From Candidatus Korobacter versatilis (GTDB taxonomy: Bacteria; Acidobacteriota; Terriglobia; Terriglobales; Acidobacteriaceae): a stretch of DNA of 64,000 bases. Shown here piece by piece: positions 12,076 to 60,194 of the stretch (positions within the stretch are counted from its first letter, which is position 1; every line of letters begins with the position of its first letter). The DNA lies in contig JACPNR010000009.1 of NCBI GenBank assembly GCA_016185395.1, forward strand, positions 295,843 to 359,842, given 5' to 3'. A program made the translations under genes and the position numbers. Below the pieces are notes generated by a model. That model was given only the letters and a program-made list of their open reading frames with translations, was not told the origin of the DNA and searched no databases.

Positions 12076-12174
12076 GACGGCGAGCTGTTTCAGCTACCAA
12101 AGGAAGGCGCCGCAAGCTGGTTAGCCTGCGGCGCTTCTTTTCCGTCTACCCTCCCCCAAGGTTCAACGGAAAAC

Positions 12175-17422: not shown

Positions 17423-17428
17423 GTCTCT

Positions 17429-20400: not shown

Positions 20401-20497
20401 GGTCCTGCAGGATCCCGGAGTACTCCCGCAGGAATTGCAGGTGCTCGCTCGCTTCCTGGAAAAAGATCTCCGCGAATTCCTGGCCTGGCGTGCTCAC
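17429..20497 (-). CDS. cheA: Hybrid CheA-type histidine kinase: two Hpt domains, kinase core, CheW-like domain and a C-terminal receiver (ChpA/FrzE-like)
   Basis: Hpt1 SAHTLAGTSA and Hpt2 AIHTIKGAAA. HLVRNAVAHG, DDGRGID and GRGVGLD boxes. CheW-like segment. REC with LADDS and LVVTDLEMPRTNG...KP. Confidence 0.92.
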   Translation of the reverse strand: MSTPGQEFAEIFFQEASEHLQFLREYSGILQDPYPVPEDLERLYISAHTLAGTSASYGYPLFSDVSGKLAHIFQYAMNATIGPDAAGPLVEFISEAIAVLESDLIMISATSAEAVEDIASFKQKYPFAFQAPAEAEEEPAYLEQSEGTVAEQAPLPEIADLPADGEVPEEILEFFVPEAEEHLQVVTECLLALEANPNPEDINRLFRAIHTIKGAAAQVGLLRISRVAHRAEDLVGRLREGQLKPSAEIVDLCLESVDILKKFLYRQWPDELTMQASTRALMYRIGRLAPEEGEEGIAAPMVAPAVAESPAAEAAHVPAQSGVAAESAVPEVAAPMHIEPVRREPHVEAKEDDETVLRKEPVAMPQSKSVRIGLERLDRMMNAVGELVINRTRMLGRLAELEKLADVLNFSKGRMSDKVSEFTEKHEFSQITSNAPKPKAEKGISFDSPYRGGYSSYTHSYDASLAEFSELEMDRYDDFNILSRSLSEISADITEVLTQLDGFVRRVDSDIDEFTKLAHRLQDEITQARMVPIGNLYTRISRTVRDAAKASNKQVELTLGGAETELDNNIIQQISDPLVHLVRNAVAHGLEKHDERYAAGKPDSGNIAVRAYHRGNHIYIEVEDDGRGIDYDRVRATAIEAGLVAQDDIERLTERDLLDLLFHPGFSTAPRKTELAGRGVGLDVVKANVAALNGEIEIDTEKGRGSRFTLKVPLTLIISQALFVRCGEATFALPLAFVEEIRRLRADEIEEVGGKLLTKVRDVVTEIVRLDTHLGLPEVEPVNGYYRLVLVNVAARQVGIVVEEVLRKDEIVIKSLGEYLRNMKMFPGATIAPDGSLILLVDVNRLIAGEAIERRPLMASATAARIFAPGAAAVAKGEIPAAAIDEVVEEKVVVLADDSISVRKFVGRMLEKAGYRVKLASDGLEALEIATQTRCDLVVTDLEMPRTNGYELIAHLRQSPETRHIPVMVVTSRAGAKHKDRALKEGAAAFLVKPVQEDQFLAEVAALIGGAGTQTKAAVGTT

Positions 20498-21381
20498 CGC
20501 GCCCCCTCTCCGCCGGCGACCGTGGCGCTGCGCTTGGGCGTGCCCGAACCCGGCTTCTGGTAGTAGATGGAATCGCCGTGGACGATGGGATCGAACTGCA
20601 CGCCCGTCTTGGCGATGGACTCGGCGTGCCCGAGGAAGAGATATCCGCCCGGCTCGAGGTATTCGTAGAAGCGCTGGATGAGCGCGGCGCGGCGCTCGTC
20701 AGAAAAATAGATCAGGACGTTCATGCAGAAGATGCAATCAAAGCGTCCCATGTAGACGACCTGCGCCAGGTTCATGGGCGCGAACGTCACCATGTTGCGG
20801 ATCTTCGGCTTCACCATGAACTGGTCGCCGAGTTTCGCGAAGTATTGTTCGATCAGCGCCGGGTCCTGCGGCCCCAGCTCACGCCGCGAATAGACACCGC
20901 GCTCCGCCGCCTGTAGCGCCTGCCGGCTGATGTCGGTGGCGAGGATGTGGATGTTCCATGCCTCGGCGAACTCGAGCGTCTCGCAGATGGACATCGCGAT
21001 CGAATACGGTTCTTCCCCGGTCGCGCAGCCCGCGCTCCAGATGCGTAGCGAGCGCGGGTTCTCCCAGAACTTTTTCATGTGCATCTCGGGGAGGACCTTG
21101 CGCTCCAGCGCGGCATGCACGTCGGGATAGCGGAAGAACGAAGTCTCCTGCGTGAGCAGGCGCTCGAGCAGCGAGTCGTACTCCACGTTCGACGACTTCA
21201 TCACCCGCAGCAGGTCGGTGCCATGCGCCAGCCGCTTGGCCGACATGTGCTCGCGCACGCGCGTGGAAAAGAACCGTTCGCGCGAGGTGTCGAACAGGAT
21301 GCCGGAGCGCTTTTCGATGAGCGCGCGGATCTCCGAGAGCTCGTGCTCGGTCACATTGTCGGGATTGGTTTTCTCTAGCAT
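20494..21381 (-). CDS. cheR: Chemotaxis protein methyltransferase
   Basis: SFFRYP segment and SAM-binding LRIWSAGCATGEEPYSIAM. ATGA overlap with cheA. Confidence 0.92.
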   Translation of the reverse strand: MLEKTNPDNVTEHELSEIRALIEKRSGILFDTSRERFFSTRVREHMSAKRLAHGTDLLRVMKSSNVEYDSLLERLLTQETSFFRYPDVHAALERKVLPEMHMKKFWENPRSLRIWSAGCATGEEPYSIAMSICETLEFAEAWNIHILATDISRQALQAAERGVYSRRELGPQDPALIEQYFAKLGDQFMVKPKIRNMVTFAPMNLAQVVYMGRFDCIFCMNVLIYFSDERRAALIQRFYEYLEPGGYLFLGHAESIAKTGVQFDPIVHGDSIYYQKPGSGTPKRSATVAGGEGAR

Positions 21382-21424
21382 GTGCGTCGCTGCAAACGCC
21401 TGCTACTTCTCTGTATGTTTGCTG

Positions 21425-22852
21425 TTATCTCCGCGCCGCCGCCATGCTGTCCGCGCGCTCCGGCGCCGTGCTCGAGATGCGGAATTGCGAGAGCGCTTCG
21501 TTGAGCTGCTCGGAGAGCTTCACCATGTTCTCCACCGTGCGCGCCGTCTGCCGGGCGCCTTGTGACGTGGACCGCGTGATGTTGGAGATGATCTGCATCG
21601 CGTTCGCCACGCCTTCCGTGCCGCGCACCTGCTGCTTCGACGCCAGCGAGATCTCCTGCACCAGTTCGGCCGACTGGCGCACGACGGAGGAGATGGCTTC
21701 GAGCGCCTTGCCGGCCTGGTCGGCCAGCCGCGCGCCCACTTCCACTTCCTTCGTCCCTTCCTCCATCACCACCACGGCCTCGTTCGTCTCTGCCTGAATG
21801 GCCTTGATGAGCGCGGCGATGTCTTTCGTCGCCGTACGCGAGTGCTCCGCCAGCTTGCGAACTTCGTCGGCAACCACCGCGAAACCGCGGCCGGCCTCGC
21901 CGGCGCGCGCCGCCTCGATGGCGGCATTGAGCGCGAGCAGGTTGGTCTGCTCGGTGATGTCGTTGATCACGTTGATGATCTCGGAGATCTCGAGCGAACG
22001 GTCGCCCAGCGACTTGATCTTCTTCGCCGTCGCCTGCACCGAGGCGCGGATGCGCTGCATCCCTTCCAGCGTGTCGCGCACGGCGCGGTTGCCCTGTTCG
22101 GCGGCGTCGAGCGCGCGGCGCGCGGCTTCCGCCGACGCTTCCGCGTTGTTCGATACCTGCTTCATCGAGACGGTAAGCTCTTCCACCGCCGAGGAGGTGT
22201 TGGTGATCTCCTGGTCCTGCTGGTTGGCGCCGTGCGACATCTCATCCGCCGACACCAGGATCTCGCTCGCGCTCGAGGAAACGTCGATGGCGGCCTTGCG
22301 CACGCGCTCGAGCACCTTGGCGAAGTTGTCGAGCATGTAGTTCACGGAGTCGACCACGTTGCCGAGCGCGTCGTTGGTCACTTTTCCGCGCAGCGTCAGG
22401 TCGCCGCGCGCGATCTGGCTGGTGATGGTCAGGAACTCGGTCACGCTGCGTTGCAGCGATTCCTGCGCTTCCTGGTTGAAGACCGCCTTCGAGACCTTTT
22501 CCGCGGTGCGGTTCAGGTTGTCGGCCACCAAGTTGAAGTCGTTGTTCGACTCCACGTCGGCCTTCGCGCGATAGTCCCCCGCGGCCAGGCGCTCGGAGAA
22601 CTCCGTGAGCTCTTTCACCGGCGTGAGCACCTTGCTCGACAGCATCATCACGATCACGACGCACGCTCCCACCAGCACCGCGATCGCGCCAAGCAGGCGC
22701 ATGCCCGCTTCGCTCGAGCCGCCGAATGCGTCGAAGAAAGGCAAGCCCTTCGCCCACGCGCCCGCGGCGTAGCCCAAACCGAGCACCATGGCCATCGCCA
22801 CGAGGTTGATGCCCACCAACGTCCAAACGGTCGAACTCAACCGACCCTTCAT
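21425..22852 (-). CDS. Methyl-accepting chemotaxis protein with two TM segments, a very short outer loop and a HAMP domain
   Basis: Conserved signalling hairpin [32 protein letters not shown]. Only about 20 residues lie between the two N-terminal hydrophobic helices. Confidence 0.92.
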
Positions 22853-22889
22853 ACCTGCCTCCAGGAACCCCGAACTTTTCTTACCAGAC

Positions 22890-23411
22890 TCAGATCACAC
22901 CCACCGGGAACGCCTCGGTCAGGCGCTTCAGGTCGAGTGCCAATGCCAAACGCTCTTCGTGCCGCAACATGCCATGACAGTGCGGCACGTCACGCGGCGC
23001 CTCGTCCACCAACAGCGGTTCGGTGGTGGAGTAAGTGCCGATCACTTCGTCGGCGGCGATGCCCAGCCGCAAGTCGTCATGGTCGTCGGTGCCCTTCATC
23101 CGCGCGACGACCACATGCTTCGGCGGCAGGTCGGCCCGGCGTCCTTCCGTGAACGCGATGTCGATCAGCGGCACGATCGAGCCGCGCAGGTTGAACACCC
23201 CCATCAGGAACGCGGGCGACAACGGGACGCGTGTCACCGTGGGCCACTCCACCACTTCTTCCACGTCGAGTACCATCAGGCAGAAACGCTCGCGTCCGGC
23301 GCGGAAGATGCAGTACTGCTTCTCCGGCAGATGCTCGGCGAACTCCGGCGGCATCGCTCCGCCTTCGGCCTCGGGCTGCAACGGTTCGAGTTGTGGCGTC
23401 TCGTCGGGCAT
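22890..23411 (-). CDS. cheW: CheW-like coupling protein
   Basis: [24 protein letters not shown]... [11 protein letters not shown] is CheW-like. Confidence 0.85.
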
Positions 23412-23418
23412 GTGTCCG

Positions 23419-23778
23419 CTACAAAAGTTTCTGCACCACGCCGAGGAGCACTTCTTTGCTCCACGGCTTCACCACGTAATCGTCGGCGCCCTGCTGCTTC
23501 GCCCAGAACTTGTCGCTGTCCGTGCTCTTCGAGCTCACCAGCACCACGGGGATGCGTCCGTACTCCGCGCTCGCCTTCAACTCACGGCACGCCTGGAATC
23601 CATTCCGGTTCGGCATGACCACGTCGAGCAGGATCAAGCTGGGACATTCGGCGTCGATGGTCTGCTCGATCTTCATGGAATCGTTGATTGCGACCGGCAC
23701 GTAGCCGGCCGCTTGCAGCACCGATTGCATCAGCTTGATCTCGGCCTGCGAATCGTCCACGATCAGGATCTTCTTCAT
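23419..23778 (-). CDS. cheY: Single-domain response regulator (CheY/PilH-like), first gene of chemosensory operon 1
   Basis: KILIVDDS, LILLDVVMPNRNG, LVSSK, VVKPW. Confidence 0.9.
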   Translation of the reverse strand: MKKILIVDDSQAEIKLMQSVLQAAGYVPVAINDSMKIEQTIDAECPSLILLDVVMPNRNGFQACRELKASAEYGRIPVVLVSSKSTDSDKFWAKQQGADDYVVKPWSKEVLLGVVQKLL

Positions 23779-23843
23779 GCCTTCTTCTTCCCGGAGCCCT
23801 CCGGCGGGCGAACGTCTCCGCGGGGATATCCAGTAAATATAAA

Positions 23844-23859
23844 AGCAATTGCGCAGCCA
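23844..23859 (-). promoter_or_regulatory. Sigma-54 (-24/-12) promoter candidate for chemosensory operon 1
   Basis: The minus strand reads TGGCTG-CGCAA-TTGCT, with the GG and GC in the exact consensus register of TGGCAC-N5-TTGCW. It lies about 65 nt upstream of the cheY ATG in an AT-rich intergenic region. Confidence 0.6.
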
Positions 23860-23940
23860 CCCTCAGTAGCTTTGCAATAACTTTCGTCTCGCTCGCTAAT
23901 ATGTTTATTTTGTGTAAGTTAGGATAGAGATGCGGTAAAG

Positions 23941-24624
23941 CTACGAGCCGGTCGCGGCGCGGTGAGACTGCGGCTTCGTCTCACGATGAGACTCCTTCTC
24001 AGCGAACTTCAGTTCGCTCTCCAACGACGAGAACCGCTGCATGATCTCGTGCATCCGCAAGGCCATCGAATGCATGGTCTCCACCTGCTCGCGGACGTCT
24101 GCGGTCAACGCCCCTGGCTCGAGCAGCAACAGCTCGGCATTGCCCAGCACCGAGGTCAGCGCGTTGTTCATCCCGTGCCGTTGCTCCAGCATGTAGCGCC
24201 CGAGCGTCGCGTCACGACGGTCTTTCGCCGCACTTTCCTCAGCTCGCTTCGCCCGAGCCGAGGCTTCCGCATGGCGAAGCGCCTCGATGGATAACAGGAT
24301 AAGCGCGTCGAGCCAGCCATCGTGTGGCGGCAGCACAAGCAATTTGGGATGACTATTGCGCACCGAGGTCGCCGATTGCGAATCCGACGGGACGAAGATC
24401 GTGGGACAGCCGGCGGCGTCCAGTGAATCGAGCACCATGGCAAGCCTGCCGTTGCGGACACCACCCACCAGCGCAAGGTCGCACGGCGCCGTCTGCGTGC
24501 CCTTCCACAGCTCGCTGCCGACCAGCGTGAAGGCGGGCACTTTGCGCTCCGCCTGCCAGCGCCCCATGACGTTGCGTGAAAAGTCCGCATCGTCGGCGAT
24601 GATCAGTACCGTCTCCTGGTTCAC
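23941..24624 (-). CDS. Receiver-like domain fused to a HisKA/DHp-like helix pair, with no ATPase domain
   Basis: 227 aa from GTG 24624 (GTGA overlap with the upstream stop). VLIIADD and CDLALVGG are receiver-like. The H-box-like EQRHGMNNALTSVLGNAELLLLEP is followed only by a short helix. The 328-aa track ORF is an upstream extension. Confidence 0.7.
   Translation of the reverse strand: MNQETVLIIADDADFSRNVMGRWQAERKVPAFTLVGSELWKGTQTAPCDLALVGGVRNGRLAMVLDSLDAAGCPTIFVPSDSQSATSVRNSHPKLLVLPPHDGWLDALILLSIEALRHAEASARAKRAEESAAKDRRDATLGRYMLEQRHGMNNALTSVLGNAELLLLEPGALTADVREQVETMHSMALRMHEIMQRFSSLESELKFAEKESHRETKPQSHRAATGS
23978..23992. promoter_or_regulatory. Palindrome GTCTCA-CGA-TGAGAC, candidate enhancer-binding-protein site (UAS) for the operon-1 sigma-54 promoter
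   Basis: Exact 6+6 inverted repeat read directly. Its centre is about 127 bp upstream of the -24 GG at 23857-23858. An extra TGAGAC half-site lies at 23963-23968. The arms are identical to the palindrome at 32089-32103. Confidence 0.55.
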
Positions 24625-26207
24625 TGCGCGCTCCGTTGTGGGGGTTTGGGGCCGCTTTCCAGTTCTTCCATCAGTCCGATGAGCCGTCGAGCGCTCGCCG
24701 AGAGGTTCACTGCGCCATCGATGTTCTTCTGTTCTTTCGCCTGCGCGATCTGTGCCTGCAACGCAGCCGCTTCCGCGTGCGCCGCCGCGAGTACGGGAGC
24801 GACCTCCACCTGCGTACCCTGCCTGCGCTCTTCCGCCATCCGCGAGAGCAACGCGCGCGCCCCCACGGCACGCTGCAACGCGTCGGAGACATCGTCGCCG
24901 CCTTGCACGAACGCGGCGACCTCCCACGAGGAGAGCATCAGTTTGTGTCCCGCGACCACGACCGCGGTGACGGCTGTCCCGGTCTTCGCGCTGTCCTTCA
25001 ATAGCTGCTCGGCGATTTGCTCGACGTATCCATCCACGTCAGCCGGAGCGGGGGTCGGAGCGGGCTTTCCGCCGATCGCGATCGGCTTCGGCGCGGCCTT
25101 CGCCAGAGTGAGCTTGGGCTCCGCCTTGTACGCCGCAACCATCTCTTTCTGCACAGCTGCCGCGCTCGGTGCGCCCGGCATAGCCTTCGCTTCTTTGGCC
25201 AGGGGTACTGCAGCCGGAACTTTGGCCACCGGAGCGATGACCTTAGGAGCCGGCGGCACCTCGACCGGGACTGGTTCCTCGACCGCGGCTGCGACCGGTC
25301 CCGGCTGGGCGACCTGCGGCGGAGGCGCTGCCAGTGCTGCTTCCAGCGCCGTACGCAATTGGATCAACTGCTGGAATGGCTGGCCGGAACTGTAGGCCGC
25401 CCGAAACGTGGTCTTCCAGTCATGACAGAAGAGGCGCAGATGTTCCCCGCTCTCGCTCTTCCCCAGGCCGGCGGCACTGCAATCGAAGCTTCTCTGTCCA
25501 CGCTGCTCGAGTTCGTGCAGCGCAAAACGAATGGCATGCAAGTCGTTGTGGATCAAGCGCACGAACGTGCCGCGCACGAGGAAGTTGAAGCGCGTGAAGG
25601 TGAGCATCGCTCCCGAACCAAAGAACATGTCGCCGGCATCGGTCTTGAGTTTCCGCGCGTGCGCCAGGATGCCGCGCTCGAGCAGGTCACGCAGCGTCTC
25701 GCAACCGCGCAGGTTCGCGATCACCGTATCGAGCCCACCCAGCCACGCCGGAGCCTCCGGGATGGACTCGCCCAACACCGGCTCGAGCACTTCCGCCATG
25801 TCATCCAGCGTCGGCTCGCCTTGGTGCATCTTCACCGGCGCGCAATGAAAGAAATACTGAGCGAGCAGGAAGTCGGCCTTGTCGCGGTCCGCCTCCGTGC
25901 GTTTTTCCTTCGCTAGGATTCGACCGATCAGCGCGCGCAGTACCGGCTCGCTACCCAGTTCGGAGGTCTGCAGCACTTGTCGCAGTTGCCACACCTCGAT
26001 CTTCGCGTCCGCCTCAGCAAACCATTTCTCGATGCGCTCGATCGCTTCCGGCTCGGAGCGGTCGACCGGATACTCTAGATCGCGCGAGGGCTCGATCGCG
26101 ATCCCATACTGACGCACAACGGCCGCGTACACGGGATACAGCTGCCGTGCGCTCCGCCACTGCGCGGCGATCTCGGTGAGTTGTGCCGGTGCGGCTGCCG
26201 TCGTCAT
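24621..26207 (-). CDS. Hypothetical protein: globular N-domain, Ala/Pro-rich spacer and a C-terminal coiled-coil region
   Basis: 528-aa ORF coupled by 4-nt overlaps to both neighbours. No family recognised. Confidence 0.7.
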   Translation of the reverse strand: MTTAAAPAQLTEIAAQWRSARQLYPVYAAVVRQYGIAIEPSRDLEYPVDRSEPEAIERIEKWFAEADAKIEVWQLRQVLQTSELGSEPVLRALIGRILAKEKRTEADRDKADFLLAQYFFHCAPVKMHQGEPTLDDMAEVLEPVLGESIPEAPAWLGGLDTVIANLRGCETLRDLLERGILAHARKLKTDAGDMFFGSGAMLTFTRFNFLVRGTFVRLIHNDLHAIRFALHELEQRGQRSFDCSAAGLGKSESGEHLRLFCHDWKTTFRAAYSSGQPFQQLIQLRTALEAALAAPPPQVAQPGPVAAAVEEPVPVEVPPAPKVIAPVAKVPAAVPLAKEAKAMPGAPSAAAVQKEMVAAYKAEPKLTLAKAAPKPIAIGGKPAPTPAPADVDGYVEQIAEQLLKDSAKTGTAVTAVVVAGHKLMLSSWEVAAFVQGGDDVSDALQRAVGARALLSRMAEERRQGTQVEVAPVLAAAHAEAAALQAQIAQAKEQKNIDGAVNLSASARRLIGLMEELESGPKPPQRSAQ

Positions 26208-26554
26208 GCCTGGATGATCCAGTTCGCCGGTTTCGCGGTGAAGCGCGCCGCGATGGCGATGTGTCCGTTGTGATATTGCAGCGCGACGATGGAAGCCTCC
26301 GCCCGCAGGCTGCCATCCGCATTCTCCAATCGAAGATGGTCATCGAATTCGAGCGGCAGGCTTGAGGAGAAGAGCACCTCCGCCGCCGTCCCGTACTCGA
26401 TCAATGTCTGCTCGGAGAGTTCCCGCCCACGGCCGCCCGTTCCGGTAACGCGCACCGGTATCCGGACCGCGACCGCTTCCGGAAAGAACTGCGCCAGTCT
26501 GGAGACGGAGCCTTCGCTAGCAGTCTGTGACGCGACCGCGACTTGCTGTGTCAC
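26204..26554 (-). CDS. Hypothetical small protein, possibly a PilZ-like beta-barrel without the RxxxR motif
   Basis: 116 aa. RIPVRVTG...LIEYGTAAEVLFSS...LRLE...AEASIVALQYHNGHIAIAARF resembles PilZ strand order. No RxxxR or DxSxxG motif seen. ATGA overlap with the next gene. Confidence 0.55.
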   Translation of the reverse strand: MTQQVAVASQTASEGSVSRLAQFFPEAVAVRIPVRVTGTGGRGRELSEQTLIEYGTAAEVLFSSSLPLEFDDHLRLENADGSLRAEASIVALQYHNGHIAIAARFTAKPANWIIQA

Positions 26555-26706
26555 CGCACTTCCTCGCGCCTCTCTCCTGGTTTTGGAGCGCGCCCGGGGG
26601 AATTGGGCGATCCAGAAAGAGGCCAGGTTGCGTCTGATTCACTCCCGTCCAGCCGGCAGTTTCCCCGTCCGAACGCTGCGAAGGCGTGAAGAGACGCCAG
26701 TAGAAC

Positions 26707-26722
26707 TGCACGGCAACAGCCA
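26707..26722 (-). promoter_or_regulatory. Sigma-54 (-24/-12) promoter candidate for the 3-gene operon
   Basis: The minus strand reads TGGCTG-TTGCC-GTGCA (GG-N10-GC register). It lies about 150 nt upstream of ATG 26554. An alternative overlapping register, TGGCTT-AGGTG-CGGCA, sits at 26729-26744. Confidence 0.45.
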
Positions 26723-26796
26723 AACGGCTGCCGCACCTAAGCCATTGATTTAATGGTGATTTCTACTCGGAATACGCTGGAAGCGGAGCTTGGGTC

Positions 26797-26811
26797 GTCT
26801 CAGGATGAAAC
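26797..26811. promoter_or_regulatory. Near-palindrome GTCTCA-GGA-TGAAAC, candidate UAS for the 3-gene operon promoter
   Basis: 11 of 12 arm positions match the GTCTCA/TGAGAC palindrome. A second GTCTCA lies at 26813-26818. The centre is about 83 bp upstream of the -24 GG at 26720-26721. Confidence 0.45.
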
Positions 26812-26822
26812 AGTCTCACGCA

Positions 26823-28249
<1,427 letters not shown>

Positions 28250-28253
<4 letters not shown>

Positions 28254-28648
28254 ACGGCCTTCCCGAATATCTTCTGCACGACCTCGAGCAGTTGCTGCAC
28301 ACGGAAGGGTTTCTCCACGCACGGCGCGTTCGTCTTGCGCAGCAACGCAACCGTCTCTTCGTTCACCGTGTCGCCGGTGACCAGGATCACGCGGTCGGCG
28401 AGATGTGGCCGGTTGGTCACGATCCAGGCGTGCACGTCGGCGCCGCTCACTCCGCCGGGCGTGCGCATGTCGGTGATCACGCCGCGGAACTCGGCTGTCT
28501 CGAACAGCTTCAGCGCTTCCACGCCCGAGGACGCGGTCACGACCGAATACCCACTGCGTTCGAGCGCCGCCTGCAGGAACGCCATCACCGACGGCTCGTC
28601 CTCGACCACGAGGATGGGCAACACTGCGGGCTTCGTCGTCGCTGTCAT
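28250..28648 (-). CDS. Stand-alone response regulator receiver
   Basis: 132 aa from ATG 28648 (MTATTKPAVLPILVVEDEP...GVITDMRTPGG...EKPF). ATGA overlaps on both sides. Confidence 0.85.
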
Positions 28649-31600
28649 GCCTGGCCTCCCGCCGCCGCTTTGCCCGCCGACAACGGCAAGCGCACGATGA
28701 ACGTCGCTCCTGGGCGCTCGCCATTGTTCTGGCATGTGATCTCGCCGCCGTGCTCGTGCACGATGCCGTAGCAAATACTCAAGCCGAGCCCCGTCCCCTT
28801 GCCCACTTCCTTCGTGGTGAAGAATGGGTCGAAGATGCGGTCGGGTTGTGCGATGCCGCTGCCGTTGTCACTGAAGGCGATGTCGGCCATGCCGTTGCTC
28901 GCGCTGGTGGATATCTCGATCGCGCCGCGCCGGCCGGTCTCGCGCACCGCGTCGTACGCATTATTGATGATGTTGAGAAATACCTGTTGCAACTGGTGCG
29001 CGTCACCCACGATGGCGGGCAGGTCAGGCTGGCAGCGTTCGACCACGTCGATGCCGTGGCTCGACAAATCGTAAGCGCGCAATTGCAATGTGCGCCGCAG
29101 GATGGCATTGATGTCGATGGCCTTGCGTTCCGCCGGCATCTGCCGCGCGAAGCTCAGCAGGTTCTGCACGATCTGCCGCGTGCGCTGCGACTCCTGCACG
29201 ATCACCGCAAGGTCTTTTTTCGCGGACTCGGGAATGTCTTCCTGCTGCACCAGCAAGTCCGCGAACCCAAGGATCGCGGTCAGCGGATTGTTGACTTCGT
29301 GCGCCACGCCCGACACAAGCTGTCCCACCGCCGCCATCTTTTCCGCGTGCATCAGCTTGGCATTCAGCAGCGCGGCATCCGTGATGTCCGTCATCACCAC
29401 GACGATGCTCGACACGTTTCCCTGCTCGTCGCGCATCGGGCTCAGGTTCATCGAAAAGTGGCCCACCTTCTCGGACCCGCGTCGAATGGGCAGTTCCAGG
29501 TTGTCGACCTGTTGGCCGGACATCACGCTCTCGAGCGCGTCGGTCAGGTTGTTGCGGCGCGACGGCTCGACCAGGTCGAGCAGCCGGTTGCCGAGCAGCT
29601 CCGATTCCTTGAAACCGCCTGCTTCGAAGCAGCGCCGGTTCGCGTAGCTGATGAGCCCCGCCGTGTCCGACACCAGGATCATGCTCTGCGTGTTGTTCAG
29701 GATCTTGCTGTTGAAGTCGCGCTCGTGCAGCAGTTGCGATTGGAACGTCTTGAGCTCGGTGATGTCGAGGATCATGCCGCGATACTGCGTGACCTTGCCG
29801 CCAGCATCGCGGACCGCAAAAGAGTTTTGCAGCGTGTGCACCAGCGTGCCATCCTTGCGCCGCAACACTTCCTGGTAGTTGCGCACCATGCCGCGTTCCT
29901 CGATCAGTTGCCGGAAGCGTTGCCGGTCTTCCGGCTGCAGGTAAAGCCGCGTCGGGACATCGATCTCGAGCAACTCCTGCCGGCTGGAATATCCCAGCAT
30001 GCGGACGAGGGCGTCGTTCACTTCGATGAAGCGGCCTTCCGGCGACGAGAAGAAAATGCCTTCCTGCGTGTTGTCGAAGAGTTCGCGATAACGGCGCTCG
30101 ACCTCGCGCCGGTCAGTGATGTCCTTGAGCACGTGGATGGTCTGCGTACCTTCGTTGAGCGCGCCCCGCATGCGTGAGGTCGAAACCAGGTACGTGCGCT
30201 CGAGCACCGGATGGATGTACTCGTCCGCCGTCTCCATGCCGCTGCGGCAGAACGGGCACGGCAGCGCGTTCGCCTCCGCCGTGATCGAGACTAGCGCCCG
30301 CATGCCCACGCCGATCAACTCCGGCGGCCGCACGCCAATGAACTCCGCCAGCGAGCGGTTCACGCGCAGCACGCGGTTGCTCTCGTCGTGCACCACGATG
30401 AAATCGGAGATGGCGTCGAAGATCTCCGCCCACTGCTTGTTCGACTGTGCGATGCGCGTGAACAATCGCGAGTTCTCGAGCGCTACCGAGATGTGGCCGG
30501 AGATCGCGCGCAACAGCTCATAGTCGGCGGGCGAGAGTGGACGCCGCAGTTCAGCGAGACAAAGATAGCCCAGGAATTCTTCCGAAGCCGCTGCCAGGCG
30601 CACGATGCAAGCATCGTTCCAGCCGAGTGACGCCGCCAGGCCCGCCCCGAGCAGCTCCGCCGCGCTCCCCGCGGAAACAGGCGCGCGCTGCGCGTGCCCA
30701 AGCTCGACCAGCGCCTGGCTCAAGCGCCGCGGCAGGGCACGATCGGTGACCTCGCGCTCATCATGCAGAAGTACCGTCTCGAGCGAAGGGCCCTGCGCCA
30801 GGACGAGCGCGGCCGCGTGCGCATCCAGCATCTCCGCCGCCCGCAAAGTGAACTTCTTAACGAACTCCGGCAGATTGAGCGACGAACTCAACTCCAGCCC
30901 GAGCTTGACCAGGTTTTCCGCGCGATTGCGGTGCTGCTCCGTGGTCGAATACAGCTCGGCGTTCGCCAGGATCAATCCGGCGATGTTCGCGAGCGACCCG
31001 AGCAGCCGGAAATCGCGTCCCGACACTTTTCCATCCGGAGGAAAGCAGACGAGAAGCACCCCCTCGCGGCGCGCGGTGCGAATCCGCACAGCAACAGCGT
31101 CCCCGAAAGCGACTACGCCGCCGTGCAGCGCGGCGTCGAAGCGGATGGCCGCCGGCAACTCGCTCGCCGTCGTAGCGATGAGCTTCGCAGCAGCCGCATG
31201 CGCAAGCGTCTCGGCGTGCGCGATCGCCAGTGGCTCCGGCACCGCTCCAGCCGCAACGGCCTTGGTCTGCAAGCCATCCTTCTCGCAGGAGTAAAGGATG
31301 ACCGAAGCCGCTCCAAACAATGCACAGACGCGATGCACCAGCGTCGCCATGATCTTCCCGGCGTCCAGGCCAGACTGCAGCGCGTGCGTCAATTCCACGA
31401 GGTGGACAGCGCGCTCGCGTTCCTCGAGCGACGATTCGCGCAAGCGCGCGATCTCGGCCATCGTGCCGAGCTGCGCCGCGAGGATGGTCGCCTTCGCAGC
31501 CAGGTCGTCGGTGAAGAAATTGGGATCCGAATCGTGCAACAGGACGCCCACACCGATCACTTCTCCCGCCACTACCAGCGGCGCCGCCAGCATCGCGCGG

Positions 31601-32037
31601 GCCCCGAAACGCCCCGCCATGGGATAGCGGTCCGCGTCGAGCTCGTTGACGTAAACGGTGCGCCGGCTGGTGACCGCCTCATTCGCGACCGCGCTCTCGT
31701 CGAGCTGCAACGACGCCTGCAGGAACTCCGCCACCATCCGTCCTTCCGCATCGACGGCGTCCAGGCGTTCGTTCTCTTTCAGGTCCCAGTAGTAAACCCC
31801 GCTGACCTCGAACAGGTCTTTCGCCGACCGGCAAAAAAGACGGATGAGCGCGCTGAAGTCTGCGCCATCGGCGACCGCAGCGGAAAATTGCAGCAGCGTC
31901 TGCTGAAACACAGACGCCGACGTCGAAACAGGCTCTGCCGTCGATCTTCCTGAGACACTCATTGTTTGCGTTGAGACGGGTGTGCGGTTGCCTTCGGGGG
32001 AGAAGGTGACGTTATGCGGAATCTCAAAATGAGTCAA
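28645..32037 (-). CDS. Cytoplasmic multi-sensor histidine kinase (several GAF and PAS domains, HisKA, HATPase_c)
   Basis: H-box AHEVNNPLTAILG, N/G boxes NNAYDA, DNGSGI and GTGLGLSICYGIV. No hydrophobic TM segment seen. TTG start as in the track; an alternative ATG at 31962 is possible. Confidence 0.9.
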   Translation of the reverse strand: MTHFEIPHNVTFSPEGNRTPVSTQTMSVSGRSTAEPVSTSASVFQQTLLQFSAAVADGADFSALIRLFCRSAKDLFEVSGVYYWDLKENERLDAVDAEGRMVAEFLQASLQLDESAVANEAVTSRRTVYVNELDADRYPMAGRFGARAMLAAPLVVAGEVIGVGVLLHDSDPNFFTDDLAAKATILAAQLGTMAEIARLRESSLEERERAVHLVELTHALQSGLDAGKIMATLVHRVCALFGAASVILYSCEKDGLQTKAVAAGAVPEPLAIAHAETLAHAAAAKLIATTASELPAAIRFDAALHGGVVAFGDAVAVRIRTARREGVLLVCFPPDGKVSGRDFRLLGSLANIAGLILANAELYSTTEQHRNRAENLVKLGLELSSSLNLPEFVKKFTLRAAEMLDAHAAALVLAQGPSLETVLLHDEREVTDRALPRRLSQALVELGHAQRAPVSAGSAAELLGAGLAASLGWNDACIVRLAAASEEFLGYLCLAELRRPLSPADYELLRAISGHISVALENSRLFTRIAQSNKQWAEIFDAISDFIVVHDESNRVLRVNRSLAEFIGVRPPELIGVGMRALVSITAEANALPCPFCRSGMETADEYIHPVLERTYLVSTSRMRGALNEGTQTIHVLKDITDRREVERRYRELFDNTQEGIFFSSPEGRFIEVNDALVRMLGYSSRQELLEIDVPTRLYLQPEDRQRFRQLIEERGMVRNYQEVLRRKDGTLVHTLQNSFAVRDAGGKVTQYRGMILDITELKTFQSQLLHERDFNSKILNNTQSMILVSDTAGLISYANRRCFEAGGFKESELLGNRLLDLVEPSRRNNLTDALESVMSGQQVDNLELPIRRGSEKVGHFSMNLSPMRDEQGNVSSIVVVMTDITDAALLNAKLMHAEKMAAVGQLVSGVAHEVNNPLTAILGFADLLVQQEDIPESAKKDLAVIVQESQRTRQIVQNLLSFARQMPAERKAIDINAILRRTLQLRAYDLSSHGIDVVERCQPDLPAIVGDAHQLQQVFLNIINNAYDAVRETGRRGAIEISTSASNGMADIAFSDNGSGIAQPDRIFDPFFTTKEVGKGTGLGLSICYGIVHEHGGEITCQNNGERPGATFIVRLPLSAGKAAAGGQA

Positions 32038-32088
32038 GAAATAACGCCAGACGTTAATTAGTTGATAAACATTCCGAACATTCGTCAG

Positions 32089-32103
32089 GTCTCACTATGA
32101 GAC
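32089..32103. promoter_or_regulatory. Palindrome GTCTCA-CTA-TGAGAC, candidate UAS in the divergent control region
   Basis: Exact 6+6 inverted repeat. Its centre is about 148 bp upstream of the -24 GG at 32244-32245. Extra TGAGAC half-sites lie at 31951-31956, 31972-31977 and 32128-32133. Confidence 0.55.
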
Positions 32104-32242
32104 AGATGCGGCTAGGTAGGGGGCTGATGAGACTGGTTCTCGCTCCACCGGAGCCCAAAGTGGAGCCGCCATATCCAGTGTAACTTGTTGTAAATATTAG
32201 CATTGGACTTTTATTTCTGTTTCCGTCCGAATGCCTGCAGGG

Positions 32243-32258
32243 TGGCACCGGCATTGCA
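32243..32258 (+). promoter_or_regulatory. Sigma-54 (-24/-12) promoter, perfect consensus
   Basis: TGGCAC-CGGCA-TTGCA read directly. It lies about 40 nt upstream of the GAGGAGGAG Shine-Dalgarno and GTG 32297 of the first gene of chemosensory operon 2. Confidence 0.7.
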
Positions 32259-32296
32259 CATATGGGGGTCGGCATACTGCCGTTCGAGGAGGAGCT

Positions 32297-32632
32297 GTGT
32301 CTTTCAGTCGATTTAAAAGTTGGGTCGCGCGTGCTGCGCTGGTCGCAGTGATTGCCGCGAGCGTAACGCCGTCCGCGCTGGCGGACGACCGCAAGATCAA
32401 GTCAGAGGTCAAGCCGGCTTATCCGGAACTCGCGAAAAAAATGAACGTAAGCGGCGCGGTGAAGGTGGAGATCGTTATCACTCCCGCCGGCACGGTGAAG
32501 AGCGCGAAGGCGCTCGGCGGACATCCGCTGCTGATTGAACCCTCGGTCGAGGCCGCCAAGAAGTGCAAGTTCGAACCGGGCAGCGGTGAGACCACGCAAG
32601 TCATGACCTTCAATTTCAAAGCAGCCCAGTAA
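32297..32632 (+). CDS. Small exported TonB C-terminal-domain protein
   Basis: Signal-like [19 protein letters not shown], then [29 protein letters not shown]...FEP, typical of TonB_C. Start moved to GTG 32297, behind a strong SD; the track start is 32231. Confidence 0.75.
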
Positions 32633-32660
32633 TCGCCCGCAAGCGGCGGAGGCAACGGTA

Positions 32661-34655
32661 ATGAACATCGGCAAGAAACTCTTCTACGGATTTGGCGCCA
32701 TTCTCGGATTGCTGCTCCTGCTCTACGGCGTGAGCACCACCGCGCTGTGGCGCGCGGACAGCGCTCGCCGCGCGACCATGACCTCGCTCGACACCATGCG
32801 CGGCATGGAAGACGTCCGCTTGCAGATGATGACCAACCGCCAATACCTGGATAGCTACCTCCTCGCCGGCGTTCCCGGCGAACTGGAGAAGTTCCGCGCC
32901 GGATTGTCCGATCTCCAGAACAAGCTGCGCATCGCCGAGTCCAAGGCCACCGACGAACAGCGCGCCGCGCTCGGCACCGTGCGCAATTCAGAAGCAACCT
33001 GGTTCAGCAGCTACGCTGACCCGCTCATCCAAAAACGCCAGCAGGTGGATTCCGGCAACGCGACCGCCGCTGACCTGCAGATCGCTTTCATTCAGCTTCA
33101 GGAGAAGAACGAGCAACAGCTCACCGCCTCCACGACCGCCCTCGACCAGGTGGAAAAGGTCACGCAGAAGGCCGCGGAGGAGCAACGCGATTCCAGTGAC
33201 ACCACCGCCCGGTTCGCCTACTGGGCGTCGTTCATCTTCATGGTCATCGCCTGCGTGCTTGGCGGTTTCATCGCCATCCGCACCGCGAATTCCATCACCG
33301 AGCCGCTCGGGCGCCTCATCGTCGTTGCCGACCAGATCGGCAACTCCGGCGACCTAGAACACTCCATCGACATCAGCGGTTCCGACGAGATCGGCGAACT
33401 CGCCCGCACCTTCAACAACATGGTCGCGTACCTCAAGGAGATGGCCGCGGTCTCCGAAGCCATCGCCGGCGGCGACCTCTCTGTTCAGGTCGAGCCGCGC
33501 TCGCAGCGCGACACTCTCGCCAACGCCTTCTCGGCCATGACCACCGGCCTGCGCGCGCTCGTGAAGCGCGTGCGTGATAGCGCCGCGCAAGTCGCCAGCG
33601 GCTCCAACCAGGTCGCGGACGCCTCCGATGAATCCGCCAAGATCAGCGTGCACGCCTCCTCGGCCATCGACGAAGTCACCAGCACCATGCACGAGATGTC
33701 CATCAACGTGCAGAACATGGTGAAGAACACGCAGACGCAGGCCTCGAGCGTTTCCGAGACCTCCGCCTCCATCGACCAGATGGTCGCCTCCATCCAGCGC
33801 GTGGCCGATACCGCGAAAGTCCTGCTCGACATCTCGCAGCGTTCGCGCGAAGAGGTGCAGAGCGGCATCACCACCATGGAGAAAGCGACGGACGGACTCA
33901 CCCGCATCAACGGCTCCATCCGCTCGTCTGGCGAGATCATCGGCGCTCTCGGTCAACGCGCCGACGACATCGGCAAGATCATCGAGGTCATCGACGACCT
34001 CGCCGAGCAGACCAACTTGCTGGCGCTGAACGCCGCCATCGAAGCCGCCCGCGCCGGCGAGCACGGTCTCGGCTTCGCCGTCGTTGCGGACGAAGTCCGC
34101 AAGCTGGCGGAAAAATCAGCGTCGTCCACCAAGGAGATCAGCGAACTCATCCAGTCCATCCAGAAGGAGGCCCGCAAGGCGGTCGAGAACATGGAGAAGT
34201 CGACCACCATCGTGAACGAGGGCCTCACGCTCGGGTCCGACCTCTCCACCGCGCTGCGCAAGATCTCGAACGTCGTCACCGAGGTCTACAAGTTCGCGCA
34301 GGAGATCGGCGCCGCCACCAACGAGCAATCGCACGGTTCGGCGCAGATCGCCAAGGCCACCACGCGGCTCAACGAGATCACCCACGAGATCAATTCCTCC
34401 GTCGAGGAGCAGGCCTCGGGCGCGCAGGCCGTGGTCAAGGCCATGGAAAAGATGCGCGAACTGGTGCAGCAATCCACTTCCGGCTCCACCGAGTTGGCCG
34501 CTTCGGCGGAGCAGATGTCGAAGATGTCGCGCATGCTGCTCGAAGCCATGGACCGCTTCGTCATCGAGTCGAACGGCGACGCACGCCACGCGATGGCGCA
34601 GCGCCGCCACGGACACGAACCGGGCCGCATGGCGGCCGCGGCGGCGAGGAACTAG
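32661..34655 (+). CDS. Methyl-accepting chemotaxis protein (four-helix-bundle type sensor, HAMP, signalling domain)
   Basis: Two TM segments flank a periplasmic region of about 160 aa. Signalling hairpin [32 protein letters not shown]. Confidence 0.92.
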
Positions 34656-34664
34656 GGCAGACGC

Positions 34665-35156
34665 ATGATCACCAAGGACCTGCACATCGTCGGGTTCCGC
34701 ATCGGGCGCGAGACGTTTGGCGTCCCCATCGAGCTGGTGCACGAGATCGTGCGCGTGCCCGAGATCACTGCCGTGCCCGATTCGCCCGAGTACATCGAGG
34801 GCGTCATCAACCTGCGCGGCAAGATCATCTCCGTCGTCGATCTGCGCAAGCGCTTTGGCGAGCGCGAGATCACCTGGACGAAGAAGAACCGCATCCTCGT
34901 CGCCGAGTTGGAAGATAAGAAGGTCGGGCTCATCGTCGACGCGGCTTCGGAAGTCATCAAGCTCCCCCGCACCGATGTCGACAATCCGCCCAACGTCTTC
35001 GAGGAAGGCGAGTTGAACTACGTGACCGGCGTGGGCAAGCTCAACGGCCGGCTCATCATCCTCATCGAGTTGGCGAAGATCCTGCAGCGCGGCGAATTGA
35101 AACGGCTGGGCGATCTGGCGGAAGCGGCGCAATCGGCCGCATCCGCGGGCTCGTAA
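34665..35156 (+). CDS. cheW: Chemotaxis coupling protein CheW
   Basis: HIVGFRIGRETFGVPIELVHEIVRVPEIT...INLRGKIISVVDLRKRFG. Confidence 0.92.
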   Translation: MITKDLHIVGFRIGRETFGVPIELVHEIVRVPEITAVPDSPEYIEGVINLRGKIISVVDLRKRFGEREITWTKKNRILVAELEDKKVGLIVDAASEVIKLPRTDVDNPPNVFEEGELNYVTGVGKLNGRLIILIELAKILQRGELKRLGDLAEAAQSAASAGS

Positions 35157-35196
35157 TAGCGGACCCGTATCAGGACGCGGCGGCACCTTTGTCGCG

Positions 35197-36126
35197 ATGC
35201 AGCACTGGCGAGAGGCGATGGCGACGACACCGAGTCTTCAGATCCAACTGACCGAACCCGAACTCAAGCTGCTGCAGACCCTGATCTATCAGGAATGCGG
35301 CATGTATTTCGACGAGCGCCGCGTCCACTTCCTGCAGGACCGCTTGCAGCGCCGCCTCAAGGCCACCGGCCTCGAGAGTTTCTATCGCTATTACCAGCTC
35401 CTCACCAGCCGCGAAGGCAAGAGCGAACTCTCCGCGCTGCTCGAGAACCTCACCGTCAACGAGACCAGCTTCTTCCGCAACAAGCCGCAGCTCGACCTCT
35501 TCCACAAGAACACGCTCGAAGAGATCCTGCAGCGCAAGACCGAGCGGCGCGATTGGAGCCTGCGGGTGTGGAGCGCCGGATGCTCGACCGGCCAGGAACC
35601 CTACACGCTCGCCATGCTCATCTGCGACGCGCTCGCCTACTACTACCTGCGCAACCCGCTTCCCTTCGAGATGCCGAGCCCAAAGCCGCTCATCCCGCCG
35701 CCGTGGAGAGTGGAGATCCTCGCTTCCGACATCAACTACTCCGTCCTCCGCGCGGCGCAAGAGGCCGTCTATCCCGAGAACCACATGGAGCCGGTGGATT
35801 ACACCTATCGCCTGCGCTACTTCGATAAGGGCGGCGACAAGTATTCCATCAAGAAAGCGGTCAAGGACCTCGTCCACTTCGACTTCCACAATCTGAAGAC
35901 GGAGTTCTTGCCGCAGCGCAACGACGTCATCTTCTGCCGCAATGTGATGATCTATTTCGACGAAGCCGAGCAGAAGCGCCTGGTCGACAAGTTCTATCGC
36001 TGCCTGAACCGCGAGGGCTATCTCTTCGTCGGGCACGCGGAGAGCCTCTTCGGCCTCACCGACAAGTTCAAAATGATCCACGTGAACAACGGCACCGCAT
36101 ACCAGCGCATCGAGGCTGCCCCGTGA
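35197..36126 (+). CDS. cheR: Chemotaxis protein methyltransferase
   Basis: TSFFRN segment and SAM-binding LRVWSAGCSTGQEPYTLAM. An alternative start at ATG 35218 is possible. Confidence 0.9.
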   Translation: MQHWREAMATTPSLQIQLTEPELKLLQTLIYQECGMYFDERRVHFLQDRLQRRLKATGLESFYRYYQLLTSREGKSELSALLENLTVNETSFFRNKPQLDLFHKNTLEEILQRKTERRDWSLRVWSAGCSTGQEPYTLAMLICDALAYYYLRNPLPFEMPSPKPLIPPPWRVEILASDINYSVLRAAQEAVYPENHMEPVDYTYRLRYFDKGGDKYSIKKAVKDLVHFDFHNLKTEFLPQRNDVIFCRNVMIYFDEAEQKRLVDKFYRCLNREGYLFVGHAESLFGLTDKFKMIHVNNGTAYQRIEAAP

Positions 36127-39271: not shown

Positions 39272-39360
39272 TGGTTAAGGTGGAAAAGCATCCGGGATAA
39301 GGTGGGGCGCGGCGAGCGCCCGGTGGCAAGATAAGCAGCACGTGGTTCAGGAGACTGGTC

Positions 39361-39807
39361 ATGGAACAATTCGCGGCTCTGCTTCGCAGCAAAGACAAGC
39401 AGCCGGTACGTTATCTCGTGGTCGACGATTCCGTGTTCGCCCGCAAGAACATCACCAAGATGATCGAGACCTTCGGCGGACAAGTGGCGGGTGAGGCCGG
39501 CGACGGCTGCACTGCTATCACCGAATACGACCGCACCCGTCCCGACGTCGTGCTCATGGACATCACCATGCCGCAGATGGAAGGCATCGAGGCGGCCGAG
39601 CGTATCGTGCGCAATCATCCCGAAGCCCGCGTCATCATGGTCTCCTCCGTCGGCTACCAGGAGAACATCGTGACCGCGCTGCAAAAGGGCGCGCGCCACT
39701 TCGTGCAGAAGCCGGTGAAGCCGGAAGTGCTCTACGAGGTGATCAAATACGTGCTCGGTGAAGACGCCGTCGCGGCCGCCGGCGCCGCCGCAGGAGAAAA
39801 GCAATGA
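39361..39807 (+). CDS. cheY: Chemotaxis response regulator CheY
   Basis: YLVVDDS, VVLMDITMPQMEG, MVSS, VQKP. Confidence 0.9.
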   Translation: MEQFAALLRSKDKQPVRYLVVDDSVFARKNITKMIETFGGQVAGEAGDGCTAITEYDRTRPDVVLMDITMPQMEGIEAAERIVRNHPEARVIMVSSVGYQENIVTALQKGARHFVQKPVKPEVLYEVIKYVLGEDAVAAAGAAAGEKQ

Positions 39808-59989: not shown

Positions 59990-60194
59990 AGGTTCGTTCG
60001 CGCGCGGGAGTCAAAGGAAAAACGGGCGTAAGCGCCGCCTGAGCAAGGACTTTGCCGCGTCCTTCTTGGCGACTAGGGGTTGTTACCTAAGTCGAAACTC
60101 GGGCCTCGGGTTGGTTGCTGGGGAAGCAAATCGTGCATATAATACGCGCCACTTGGCGTCCCCTCGCTCGACCCTTGTGCGCCAGGCACCTGGC

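Follow-up and report, generated by a model that had tools for sequence, protein, structure and literature searches.

Does a short palindrome that recurs between the genes of an acidobacterial chemosensory island serve as the enhancer of the activator encoded beside it? The stretch under study (the window) comprises 64 kb of contig JACPNR010000009.1 of Candidatus Korobacter versatilis. Its island carries two chemosensory operons, an operon of three uncharacterized genes, and the genes for a sensor histidine kinase, a stand-alone receiver (REC) protein, and an NtrC-type enhancer-binding protein (EBP), termed the activator below. The initial annotation had described the palindrome GTCTCA-N3-TGAGAC upstream of three sigma-54–type promoters and proposed that the activator module drives the three adjoining operons. 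Our comparative analysis makes it likely that the palindrome is the enhancer, or upstream activating sequence (UAS), of the activator in a sigma-54 regulon. Footprinting across related loci supports the three-operon proposal with two revisions: one chemosensory operon (operon 1, che1) appears to be an accessory member, and a fourth site is added at the activator's own operon.

Direct reading places the three palindromes where they had first been annotated, two of them exact and one matching at 11 of 12 arm positions (Table 1). Their centers lie 148 bp (A), 127 bp (C), and 83 bp (B) upstream of the GG of the -24 element, as originally stated. The initial annotation had put the expectation at well under one exact site per 64 kb. 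By shuffling, 0.21 palindromes with at most one mismatch are expected in the window, three are observed, and three were reached in 1 of 100 shuffles. In addition, the hexamer TGAGAC is depleted in the window (16 copies vs 34 expected), and 10 of the 16 copies sit inside the three regulatory regions. The three GG-N10-GC elements were likewise recovered at their annotated positions. Each is oriented toward its adjoining operon and has a sigma-54–type sequence, promoter A being perfect to the consensus.

Two parts of the initial annotation required amendment, namely that the rest of the window holds only isolated half-sites and that the sites are single palindromes. A weight matrix derived from orthologous sites scores no more than four places in the 64 kb at 8 bits or above: besides the three palindromes, it picks out a further site (ATCTCAAAATGAGTC, 32021-32035), which had been overlooked together with half-sites flanking the palindromes. 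The dyads are real, but ortholog alignments reveal that the actual sites are arrays of half-sites.

Conservation of the sites across orthologous loci

The ortholog set comprised 91 Terriglobia loci (834 kb in total), 11 from genomes and 80 from soil metagenomes, and the control set comprised 69 loci around non-orthologous EBPs (1.06 Mb); motif scans took in the window and both sets. Searching genomes with the activator returned 11 syntenic loci from metagenome-assembled genomes of Acidobacteriota (Terriglobales) at 67 to 73% identity, after which the matches dropped sharply to paralogs at ≤50% identity. The 80 metagenome loci were gathered by a search with an alignment of the DHp protein, which is encoded by the last gene of the three-gene operon after genes for a PilZ-fold and an all-alpha protein. 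The synteny of the chemosensory/activator island is kept among the genome and metagenome loci. Sites were sorted by position: those of class A occupy the stretch that separates tonB_C/mcp2 from the kinase gene, those of class B precede the three-gene operon's first gene, and those of class C fall in the final ~100 bp of the DHp gene or between it and cheY1/mcp1. At most one mismatch was allowed for a palindrome, and a -24/-12 call required GG and GC to be fixed and at least 8 of 11 consensus positions to match.

Phylogenetic footprinting, a check proposed in the initial annotation, found the palindromes recurring at the predicted promoters: 96 of the 98 copies in the ortholog set fall at a class A, B, or C position, and the 69 control loci contain no match. 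One of the two remaining copies immediately precedes a DHp gene whose locus lacks the other two genes. The class A proximal site is present in all 11 genome orthologs and in further metagenome loci, 125 to 160 bp upstream of the -24 GG. The class C palindrome occurs in 25 of the 27 loci where the che1 operon (cheY1 or mcp1) follows the DHp gene, the other two copies having two mismatches, and in none of the 56 loci where a cheR-like or other gene follows (Fisher p = 3e-19). Where this site overlaps the coding end, the tail of the DHp protein (S-H/Q-x-E-T) is otherwise unconserved, and therefore the constraint acts on the DNA. In ~15 loci, an insertion of 1.5 to 6 kb separates the activator gene from the three-gene operon. 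Palindrome B remains with the operon despite these insertions, so it does not serve the activator gene as a terminator. The inserted DNA spans 11404-15196 in locus L004 and 2654-8628 in L106, and the same arrangement is seen in L115, L117, L129, L136, L137, L142, L144, L151, L152, L158, and L160.

The matrix of all sites has a near-invariant core, T-C/T-T-C-A-N3-T-G-A-G/A-A, with a free spacer and outer positions that are 77% G/C. In ortholog alignments, the palindrome arms are kept in sequence while the 3-bp spacer and the surrounding DNA diverge, and no other conserved dyad stood out. Each class has an array of its own. In class A, most orthologs carry (A/G)TGAGAC(A/G) 25 to 40 bp downstream of the palindrome and often another copy just upstream, the class B consensus TGAGAC-N1-6-GTYTCA-N3-TGAGAC is conserved in 50 loci, and class C follows TGAGAA-N3-GTCTCA-N3-TGAGAC-N8-9-GTCTCA. 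Such arrays would fit the assembly of a higher-order activator oligomer.

The -24/-12 elements, whose conservation the initial annotation had left to be checked, prove to be conserved at class-specific distances from the palindrome center. They were called in 20 of 22 class A loci (125-160 bp), 43 of 50 class B loci (73-116 bp), and 23 of 27 class C loci (122-131 bp), and the loci failing the call are mostly contig ends. The background of such elements in the same DNA is 0.8 per kb per strand; the chance of a match is ~16% over the whole search span and ~1% per 12-nt band. The class A consensus, TGGC(A/C)C-N5-TTGCA, lies ~40 bp before a conserved GGAGGA-N3-GTG start, and the loci called in classes B and C share TTTGG(C/T)-N8-(G/T)TGC(A/T) and TGG(C/T)TG-N3-AATTGC(A/T), respectively. 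Class B distances cluster near 73, 82, 94, 105, and 116 bp, a period of ~11 bp (p = 0.0002 on unique values, uncorrected for relatedness), with little periodicity in classes A and C. A site resembling that of integration host factor (IHF) lies between enhancer B and the -24 element in the window. Its core, TCAR-N4-TTR, recurs at fixed offsets in 31 of 43 class B, 14 of 23 class C, and 9 of 20 class A spacers vs ~4% by chance, although the strict 13-mer consensus is found in only 19 of the 86 enhancer–promoter spacers. In their dyad symmetry, their position within the 70 to 200 bp before the -24 element, their conservation, and their specificity for activator orthologs among the EBP loci scanned, the sites look as expected of a UAS.

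The additional (distal) site differs from the palindrome consensus at two positions, and those two create the -35-like hexamer TTGACT. It is conserved, in the direction of the kinase gene, as CTTGACTCAAWTTGAGAT in 23 orthologous loci, with a single match in the 1.06 Mb of controls. It lies 66 to 85 bp from the proximal palindrome and is even better conserved than the latter in the region A alignment. Orthologs keep TTGACT-N17/18-TA(G/C/T)TTT. From this we infer that TTGACT and the candidate -10 form a sigma-70–type promoter of the kinase–REC–activator operon, with a predicted activator site over its -35 and spacer. The arrangement suggests an autoregulatory operator, and the distal site could possibly be a second enhancer site for promoter A. 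Because TTG 32037, the listed kinase start, lies within the -35, ATG 31962 is the likelier start codon. Two direct GTCTCA half-sites on the minus strand, 21 bp apart (31951-31977), bracket this probable ATG; conservation of the pair was not found in the aligned orthologs. A strongly conserved element, TTATATTCAAT-ACTTGTGAA, lies ~10 to 35 bp past the candidate -10 in L002-L004, L006, L007, L010, L011, L087, L119, L123, L129, L132, L138, L139, L142, L145, L151, L152, and L160 and is absent from the window, L001, L005, and L085. It could be an alternative -10 or an element of the 5′ untranslated region.

The predicted binder and the rival explanations

The activator combines an N-terminal receiver, a sigma-54 AAA+ domain, and a Fis-type helix-turn-helix (HTH). 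Its AAA+ domain (PF00158, E = 1.9e-69, residues 147-313) has Walker A/B motifs and EKGAFTGA readable in the translation, and its HTH matches PF02954 (E = 1.6e-6, residues 424-460), in agreement with the GAFTGA loop and Fis-type HTH noted at the outset. The receiver (PF00072, E = 2.2e-25) displays VDD, VLVDLKM, IMTGYG, and ITKPF, which supply the acidic pocket, the phospho-acceptor Asp, the Thr, and the Lys. The activator scores below every NCBIfam equivalog cutoff, including those for AtoC (the best match; NF008469, 440 bits vs 714), NtrC (TIGR01818, 401 bits vs 559), ZraR, NtrX, the PEP-CTERM regulator, GlrR, FlbD, and other named EBP groups, and is therefore an uncharacterized NtrC-type EBP. 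Its recognition helix is invariant among 42 orthologs and differs in paralogs of 48 to 50% identity, which sit in loci without the palindrome. This pattern is consistent with the activator as the binder, although it is not proof.

The kinase, REC, and activator genes are joined by ATGA stop/start overlaps. Pfam supports the gene map of this module as first read, except that the kinase is not a hybrid and the REC has its own, translationally coupled gene. Pfam detected no membrane or periplasmic domain in the kinase.

Motif presence, specificity, conservation, and spacing, as well as protein domains and operon structure, were observed directly, whereas the identity of the binder, the dependence on sigma-54, the signal, and whether autoregulation is negative are inferred. 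In the regulon model, the GAF/PAS kinase, for which no membrane or periplasmic domain is predicted, would phosphorylate the activator receiver, with the stand-alone REC as a possible competing phosphate acceptor. The Fis-type HTH would read the enhancer core TCTCA-N3-TGAGA, usually flanked by G/C, together with one or two TGAGAC half-sites. Phosphorylated activator would oligomerize on the half-site arrays 73 to 160 bp upstream of the -24/-12 promoters, an IHF-like bend would deliver it to sigma-54 RNA polymerase, and promoter opening would follow from ATP hydrolysis coupled through the GAFTGA loop. Its predicted targets are tonB_C-mcp2-cheW-cheR-cheA-cheB-cheY-cheX (A), the operon for the PilZ-fold, all-alpha, and kinase-less DHp proteins (B), and, in a subset of genomes including that of the window, cheY1-cheW-mcp-cheR-cheA(REC)-cheB-cheW (C). 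Occupancy of the distal site would probably exert negative feedback on the kinase–REC–activator operon, in the manner of NtrC at glnAp1/glnLp, and may also provide a second enhancer for A.

The rival that survives best, though improbable, is that the palindrome is bound by another factor encoded elsewhere, with the local activator reading a different sequence or acting from solution. The recognition helix follows a common Fis-HTH pattern, so its invariance is not specific proof, and L100, L110, and L111 carry a class C palindrome with no activator gene within 10 kb. However, the motif co-occurs with activator orthologs in every locus that spans the region and is missing from the loci of other EBPs, and -24/-12 elements lie at enhancer distance from it, with IHF-like sites intervening. 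Moreover, by Pfam the activator is the only HTH protein of the island, in agreement with its early reading as the sole DNA-binding protein there, and no second conserved dyad offers itself. In the three loci just named, the palindrome (GTCTCACCGTGAGAT, at ~10630 in L100 and L111) belongs to a DHp-cheY1 cluster, and no activator, PilZ-fold, or all-alpha gene lies within 10 kb upstream of that cluster, so in these genomes regulator and regulon member appear to be unlinked. A class B–type promoter was looked for upstream of the cluster in L111, and none was seen.

We consider it still less probable, indeed very unlikely, that the palindromes are mainly repressor operators for sigma-70 or read-through control, in which case the B and C elements would be fortuitous and only promoter A would depend on sigma-54. 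The B and C elements are three and two positions off the consensus, the distal site overlaps a -35-like element, and a terminator scan found nothing that separates the activator operon, the three-gene operon, and cheY1, so read-through is possible. Against this, GG and GC are fixed in the class B and C loci called above and fall in narrow bands, the flanking positions match class-specific sigma-54–like consensuses, and no conserved -35/-10 pair was seen downstream of the B and C palindromes.

Scarcely credible, and rejected, is a role of the palindromes as RNA (hairpin, terminator, or processing site) or as repeat or chance features: the 6-3-6 inverted repeat is foldable, site B lies 12 bp past the activator stop codon, and site C is transcribed within the DHp gene, but the arms are conserved in sequence with no covariation or compensatory changes in ortholog alignments, which disfavors an RNA role, no T-tract follows and the terminator scan of 23700-32400 is negative at the palindromes, site A is part of a divergent promoter region and precedes the transcription units on either side, site B travels with its target operon upon gene insertion, and the expectation per window and the empty controls speak against chance.

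Several points count against the sigma-54 regulon model or temper it. Promoter B taken alone is at noise level, with 202 matches of at most three mismatches in the window vs 241 expected, and rpoN is not among the genes of the 64 kb. The class C site without a linked activator in L100, L110, and L111 would fit action in trans and equally another binder. Because many metagenome loci are akin to one another, the counts overstate the number of independent observations, and further targets or a broader distribution of the motif may exist elsewhere in the genomes. A sigma-70 scan of 23700-32400 at the stringency of E. coli called no promoter, the -10 of the kinase operon being weak, and autoregulation is therefore the weakest part of the model; on our analysis, autorepression of this operon is an evenly balanced call.

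Predicted target operons

The tonB_C-mcp2 operon (operon 2, che2) and the three-gene operon would, as universal targets, form the core of the regulon, to which che1 appears as an accessory member. The che1 operon is found in ~1/3 of the loci, the window included. Its gene order recalls Pil-Chp systems, and its CheA1 carries REC at the C-terminal end. The two REC proteins encoded downstream of it may be further outputs of the che1 system. In loci without che1 (L002, L003, L010, and ~33 more), the DHp gene is directly succeeded by one for a CheR-family methyltransferase (PF01739) that lacks a preceding palindrome. The target operon of these genomes probably includes this gene as its fourth. The genes past it in L003 (uvrB, a TPR protein, and an amidase) are unrelated. 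Flanking the island in the window are unrelated genes for a Ku-domain protein (41864-42730, minus strand), a Fic-domain protein (53625-55139, minus strand), and a GAF-GGDEF diguanylate cyclase (60066-61247, plus strand), none with a palindrome nearby.

Table 1 Regulatory elements and genes of the island in the 64-kb window
Feature	Coordinates	Strand	Description
Palindrome A, proximal (GTCTCACTATGAGAC)	32089-32103		GTCTCA-CTA-TGAGAC, exact; predicted enhancer (UAS) of tonB_C-mcp2 promoter
Palindrome B (GTCTCAGGATGAAAC)	26797-26811		11/12 arm match
Palindrome C (GTCTCACGATGAGAC)	23978-23992		GTCTCA-CGA-TGAGAC, exact
Distal site (ATCTCAAAATGAGTCAAG)	32021-32038		minus strand CTTGACTCATTTTGAGAT; right arm overlaps -35-like TTGACT (32037..32032)
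Flanking half-site, A	32128-32133	+	TGAGAC, downstream of proximal palindrome; overlooked initially
Flanking half-site, B	26813-26818		overlooked initially
Flanking half-sites, C	23963-23968; 23996-24001		overlooked initially
Predicted enhancer array B	26797-26818		minus strand TGAGAC-T-GTTTCA-TCC-TGAGAC; palindrome B plus half-site 26813-26818
Predicted enhancer array C	23963-24001		minus strand TGAGAA-GGA-GTCTCA-TCG-TGAGAC-N9-GTCTCA; within 3′ coding end of DHp gene
Promoter A (TGGCACCGGCATTGCA)	32243-32258	+	TGGCAC-CGGCA-TTGCA; tonB_C-mcp2 operon; sole 0-mismatch TGGCAC-N5-TTGCW in window
Promoter B (TGGCTGTTGCCGTGCA)	26707-26722	-	TGGCTG-TTGCC-GTGCA; three-gene operon; 3 mismatches
Promoter C (TGGCTGCGCAATTGCT)	23844-23859	-	TGGCTG-CGCAA-TTGCT; cheY1 operon; 2 mismatches
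IHF-like site (AATCAATGGCTTA)	26738-26750	-	between enhancer B and -24; full fit to WATCAR-N4-TTR
Candidate -10, kinase–REC–activator operon	32009-32014	-	TAACGT, 17 bp after TTGACT
Sensor histidine kinase	28645-31962	-	GAF-GAF-PAS x3-HisKA-HATPase (Pfam)
Stand-alone REC	28250-28648	-	PF00072, E = 8.7e-18
Activator	26823-28253	-	NtrC-type EBP; REC, sigma-54 AAA+, Fis-type HTH (Pfam)
Three-gene operon	23941-26554	-	Pfam, NCBIfam, AlphaFold2 (AF2), Foldseek
PilZ-fold protein	26204-26554	-	first gene; 116 aa; AF2 pLDDT 84
All-alpha protein	24621-26207	-	second gene; 528 aa; Pro/Ala linker (AF2)
DHp protein	23941-24621	-	third gene; receiver-like + DHp (HisKA); PF00512, 27.6 bits
Operon 2 (che2; tonB_C-mcp2)	32297-40301	+	Pfam, NCBIfam
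tonB_C-like	32297-32632	+	operon 2
MCP2	32661-34655	+	operon 2
CheW2	34665-35156	+	operon 2
CheR2	35197-36126	+	operon 2
CheA2	36123-38192	+	operon 2
CheB2	38189-39271	+	operon 2
REC	39361-39807	+	operon 2
CheX-like	39804-40301	+	operon 2
Operon 1 (che1; cheY1)	15304-23778	-	Pfam
CheY1	23419-23778	-	operon 1
CheW1	22890-23411	-	operon 1
MCP1	21425-22852	-	operon 1
CheR1	20494-21381	-	operon 1
CheA1	17429-20497	-	operon 1; 2 Hpt + CheW + REC
CheB1	16235-17422	-	operon 1
CheW-domain protein	15304-16278	-	operon 1
REC-DUF4388	14525-15307	-	downstream of operon 1, same strand
REC	13752-14528	-	downstream of operon 1, same strand

The proteins of the three-gene operon have few known relatives. Searches of Pfam, NCBIfam, and PDB sequences gave no match for the PilZ-fold and all-alpha proteins, and their homologs are hypothetical only, those labeled with an organism belonging to Terriglobales and related Acidobacteria. 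The top Foldseek matches of the first protein are the PilZ domains of BcsA, MotI, PP4397, PA0012, VCA0042, and Alg44 (E 1e-3 to 3e-2, TM ~0.5), in keeping with a split beta-barrel, and 15 members of its family gave no Pfam match even at E ≤ 5. The copy in the window has an RxxxR, although conservation does not extend to the second Arg, and the invariant N-x-D-G departs from (D/N)xSxxG. Since the canonical motifs for binding cyclic di-GMP are unconserved, this modeled protein may be a noncanonical PilZ. The N-terminal 300 residues of the all-alpha protein are confidently modeled (AF2 pLDDT 88.6, pTM 0.84), and Foldseek found no fold match for them in the PDB (best E 0.8, TM < 0.21). A Pro/Ala-rich linker follows and then, in some genomes, a conserved C-terminal domain. 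The third protein begins with an alpha/beta receiver-like domain that Pfam does not recognize, has an invariant H-box His, and ends ~25 residues past DHp. Pfam detects no HATPase_c domain in it, and it is therefore a kinase-less DHp protein rather than a kinase. It may act in phosphotransfer or as a phosphatase.

The 5′ leader of the three-gene operon contains a conserved hairpin (window 26574-26588, minus strand) with an invariant loop, (U/A)AACC(G/A), also found in L003, L004, L007, L009-L011, L087, and others. Its stem covaries, with one pair being CG in 10, GC in 10, and UA in two sequences (covariation score 0.36 vs 0.14 in shuffles). By eye, the hairpin is the apparent tip of a longer, possibly three-helix stem in many orthologs; RNAalifold retrieved no more than the apical part. 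The hairpin of the window stops ~12 nt short of the start codon and adjoins the Shine-Dalgarno sequence. Rfam gave no credible family in the region (E ≤ 1) or in three orthologous loci (gathering threshold).

A more speculative idea, which we regard as doubtful at present, is that the three-gene operon constitutes a previously undescribed signaling module coupling the two-component/sigma-54 circuit to chemosensory arrays. The locus may then be more than a transcriptional switch, for example through phosphotransfer or phosphatase feedback on the activator or the Che response regulators, and the enhancer in the DHp tail may be a recent add-on that recruited a second, Pil-Chp–like chemosensory system.

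Significance and comparison with known systems

Acidobacteria of the class Terriglobia rank among the most abundant soil bacteria, and to our knowledge hardly any of their transcriptional circuits has been defined. The locus supplies a precise predicted motif, three or four predicted promoters with base-level architecture, and a defined predicted target set of one or two complete chemosensory systems and three uncharacterized proteins. The timing of chemosensory expression and the roles of these three proteins thereby become directly testable questions. It also offers a natural case of regulon growth, in which a predicted enhancer within a dispensable coding tail is present exactly where the accessory operon is. 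The mechanism itself is conventional, extending the textbook NtrC paradigm (reviewed in PMC7057263) to a new clade and new targets without challenging it. What makes the locus valuable is comparative evidence of unusual clarity, an architecture described at base level, the joint occurrence of coding-tail enhancer and accessory operon, and the three uncharacterized target proteins. Literature searches for the motif, for this regulon, and for sigma-54 or EBPs in Acidobacteria found nothing relevant in the library that they covered.

A textbook parallel is the enteric NtrB-NtrC system and its glnALG operon. There, a kinase phosphorylates a REC–AAA+–Fis-HTH activator that acts from dyad enhancers ~100 to 150 bp upstream of a GG-N10-GC promoter, multiple NtrC sites promote oligomer assembly, and sites over the sigma-70 promoters glnAp1 and glnLp give negative autoregulation. 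The island shares the type of two-component activator, the dyad enhancers, the multiple sites, and a predicted site over a sigma-70 promoter. However, the motif is TCTCA-N3-TGAGA rather than the TGCACC-N5-GGTGCA of NtrC, the activator is no NtrC ortholog, the kinase is large and built of GAF/PAS domains, and an extra stand-alone REC stands between the two. In addition, the predicted targets are chemosensory operons, whereas those of NtrC are nitrogen assimilation genes. Among named families, AtoS-AtoC of E. coli scores best with the activator and likewise with the kinase (NF008468, 274 bits), and AtoC has the same domain order, but the scores are far under the cutoffs (646 for the kinase), and the targets and binding site differ.

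Biologically, two systems of Myxococcus xanthus come nearest to the island. Like CrdS-CrdA/Che3, it links an NtrC-like activator and a kinase to a chemosensory cluster in an EBP-rich soil bacterium (PMC3147164). In M. xanthus, Che3 modulates the phosphorylation of CrdA, so that the activator is an output of the Che system (PMC3147164), whereas here the predicted activator sites precede the che operons, which would place the activator upstream of Che; a reverse link, with Che proteins acting on the activator, is possible. The NtrC-like NmpR binds ahead of its own operon and also ahead of a sigma-54 site inside the preceding open reading frame, pilS (PMC6211767). This arrangement is paralleled by the predicted class C enhancer within the DHp coding sequence and by the distal site at the kinase–REC–activator operon, although the proteins and targets of NmpRSTU are different (pilR/pilA for NmpR) and no NmpR motif matching TCTCA-N3-TGAGA has been reported.

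Finally, reconstructions of sigma-54 regulons, for example in Clostridiales, assign to each EBP a private palindromic UAS before the -24/-12 promoters of adjacent operons (PMC6615313). The island appears to follow the same private-UAS logic, likewise conserved across related genomes, but in a different phylum, the Acidobacteriota, and within it the class Terriglobia.

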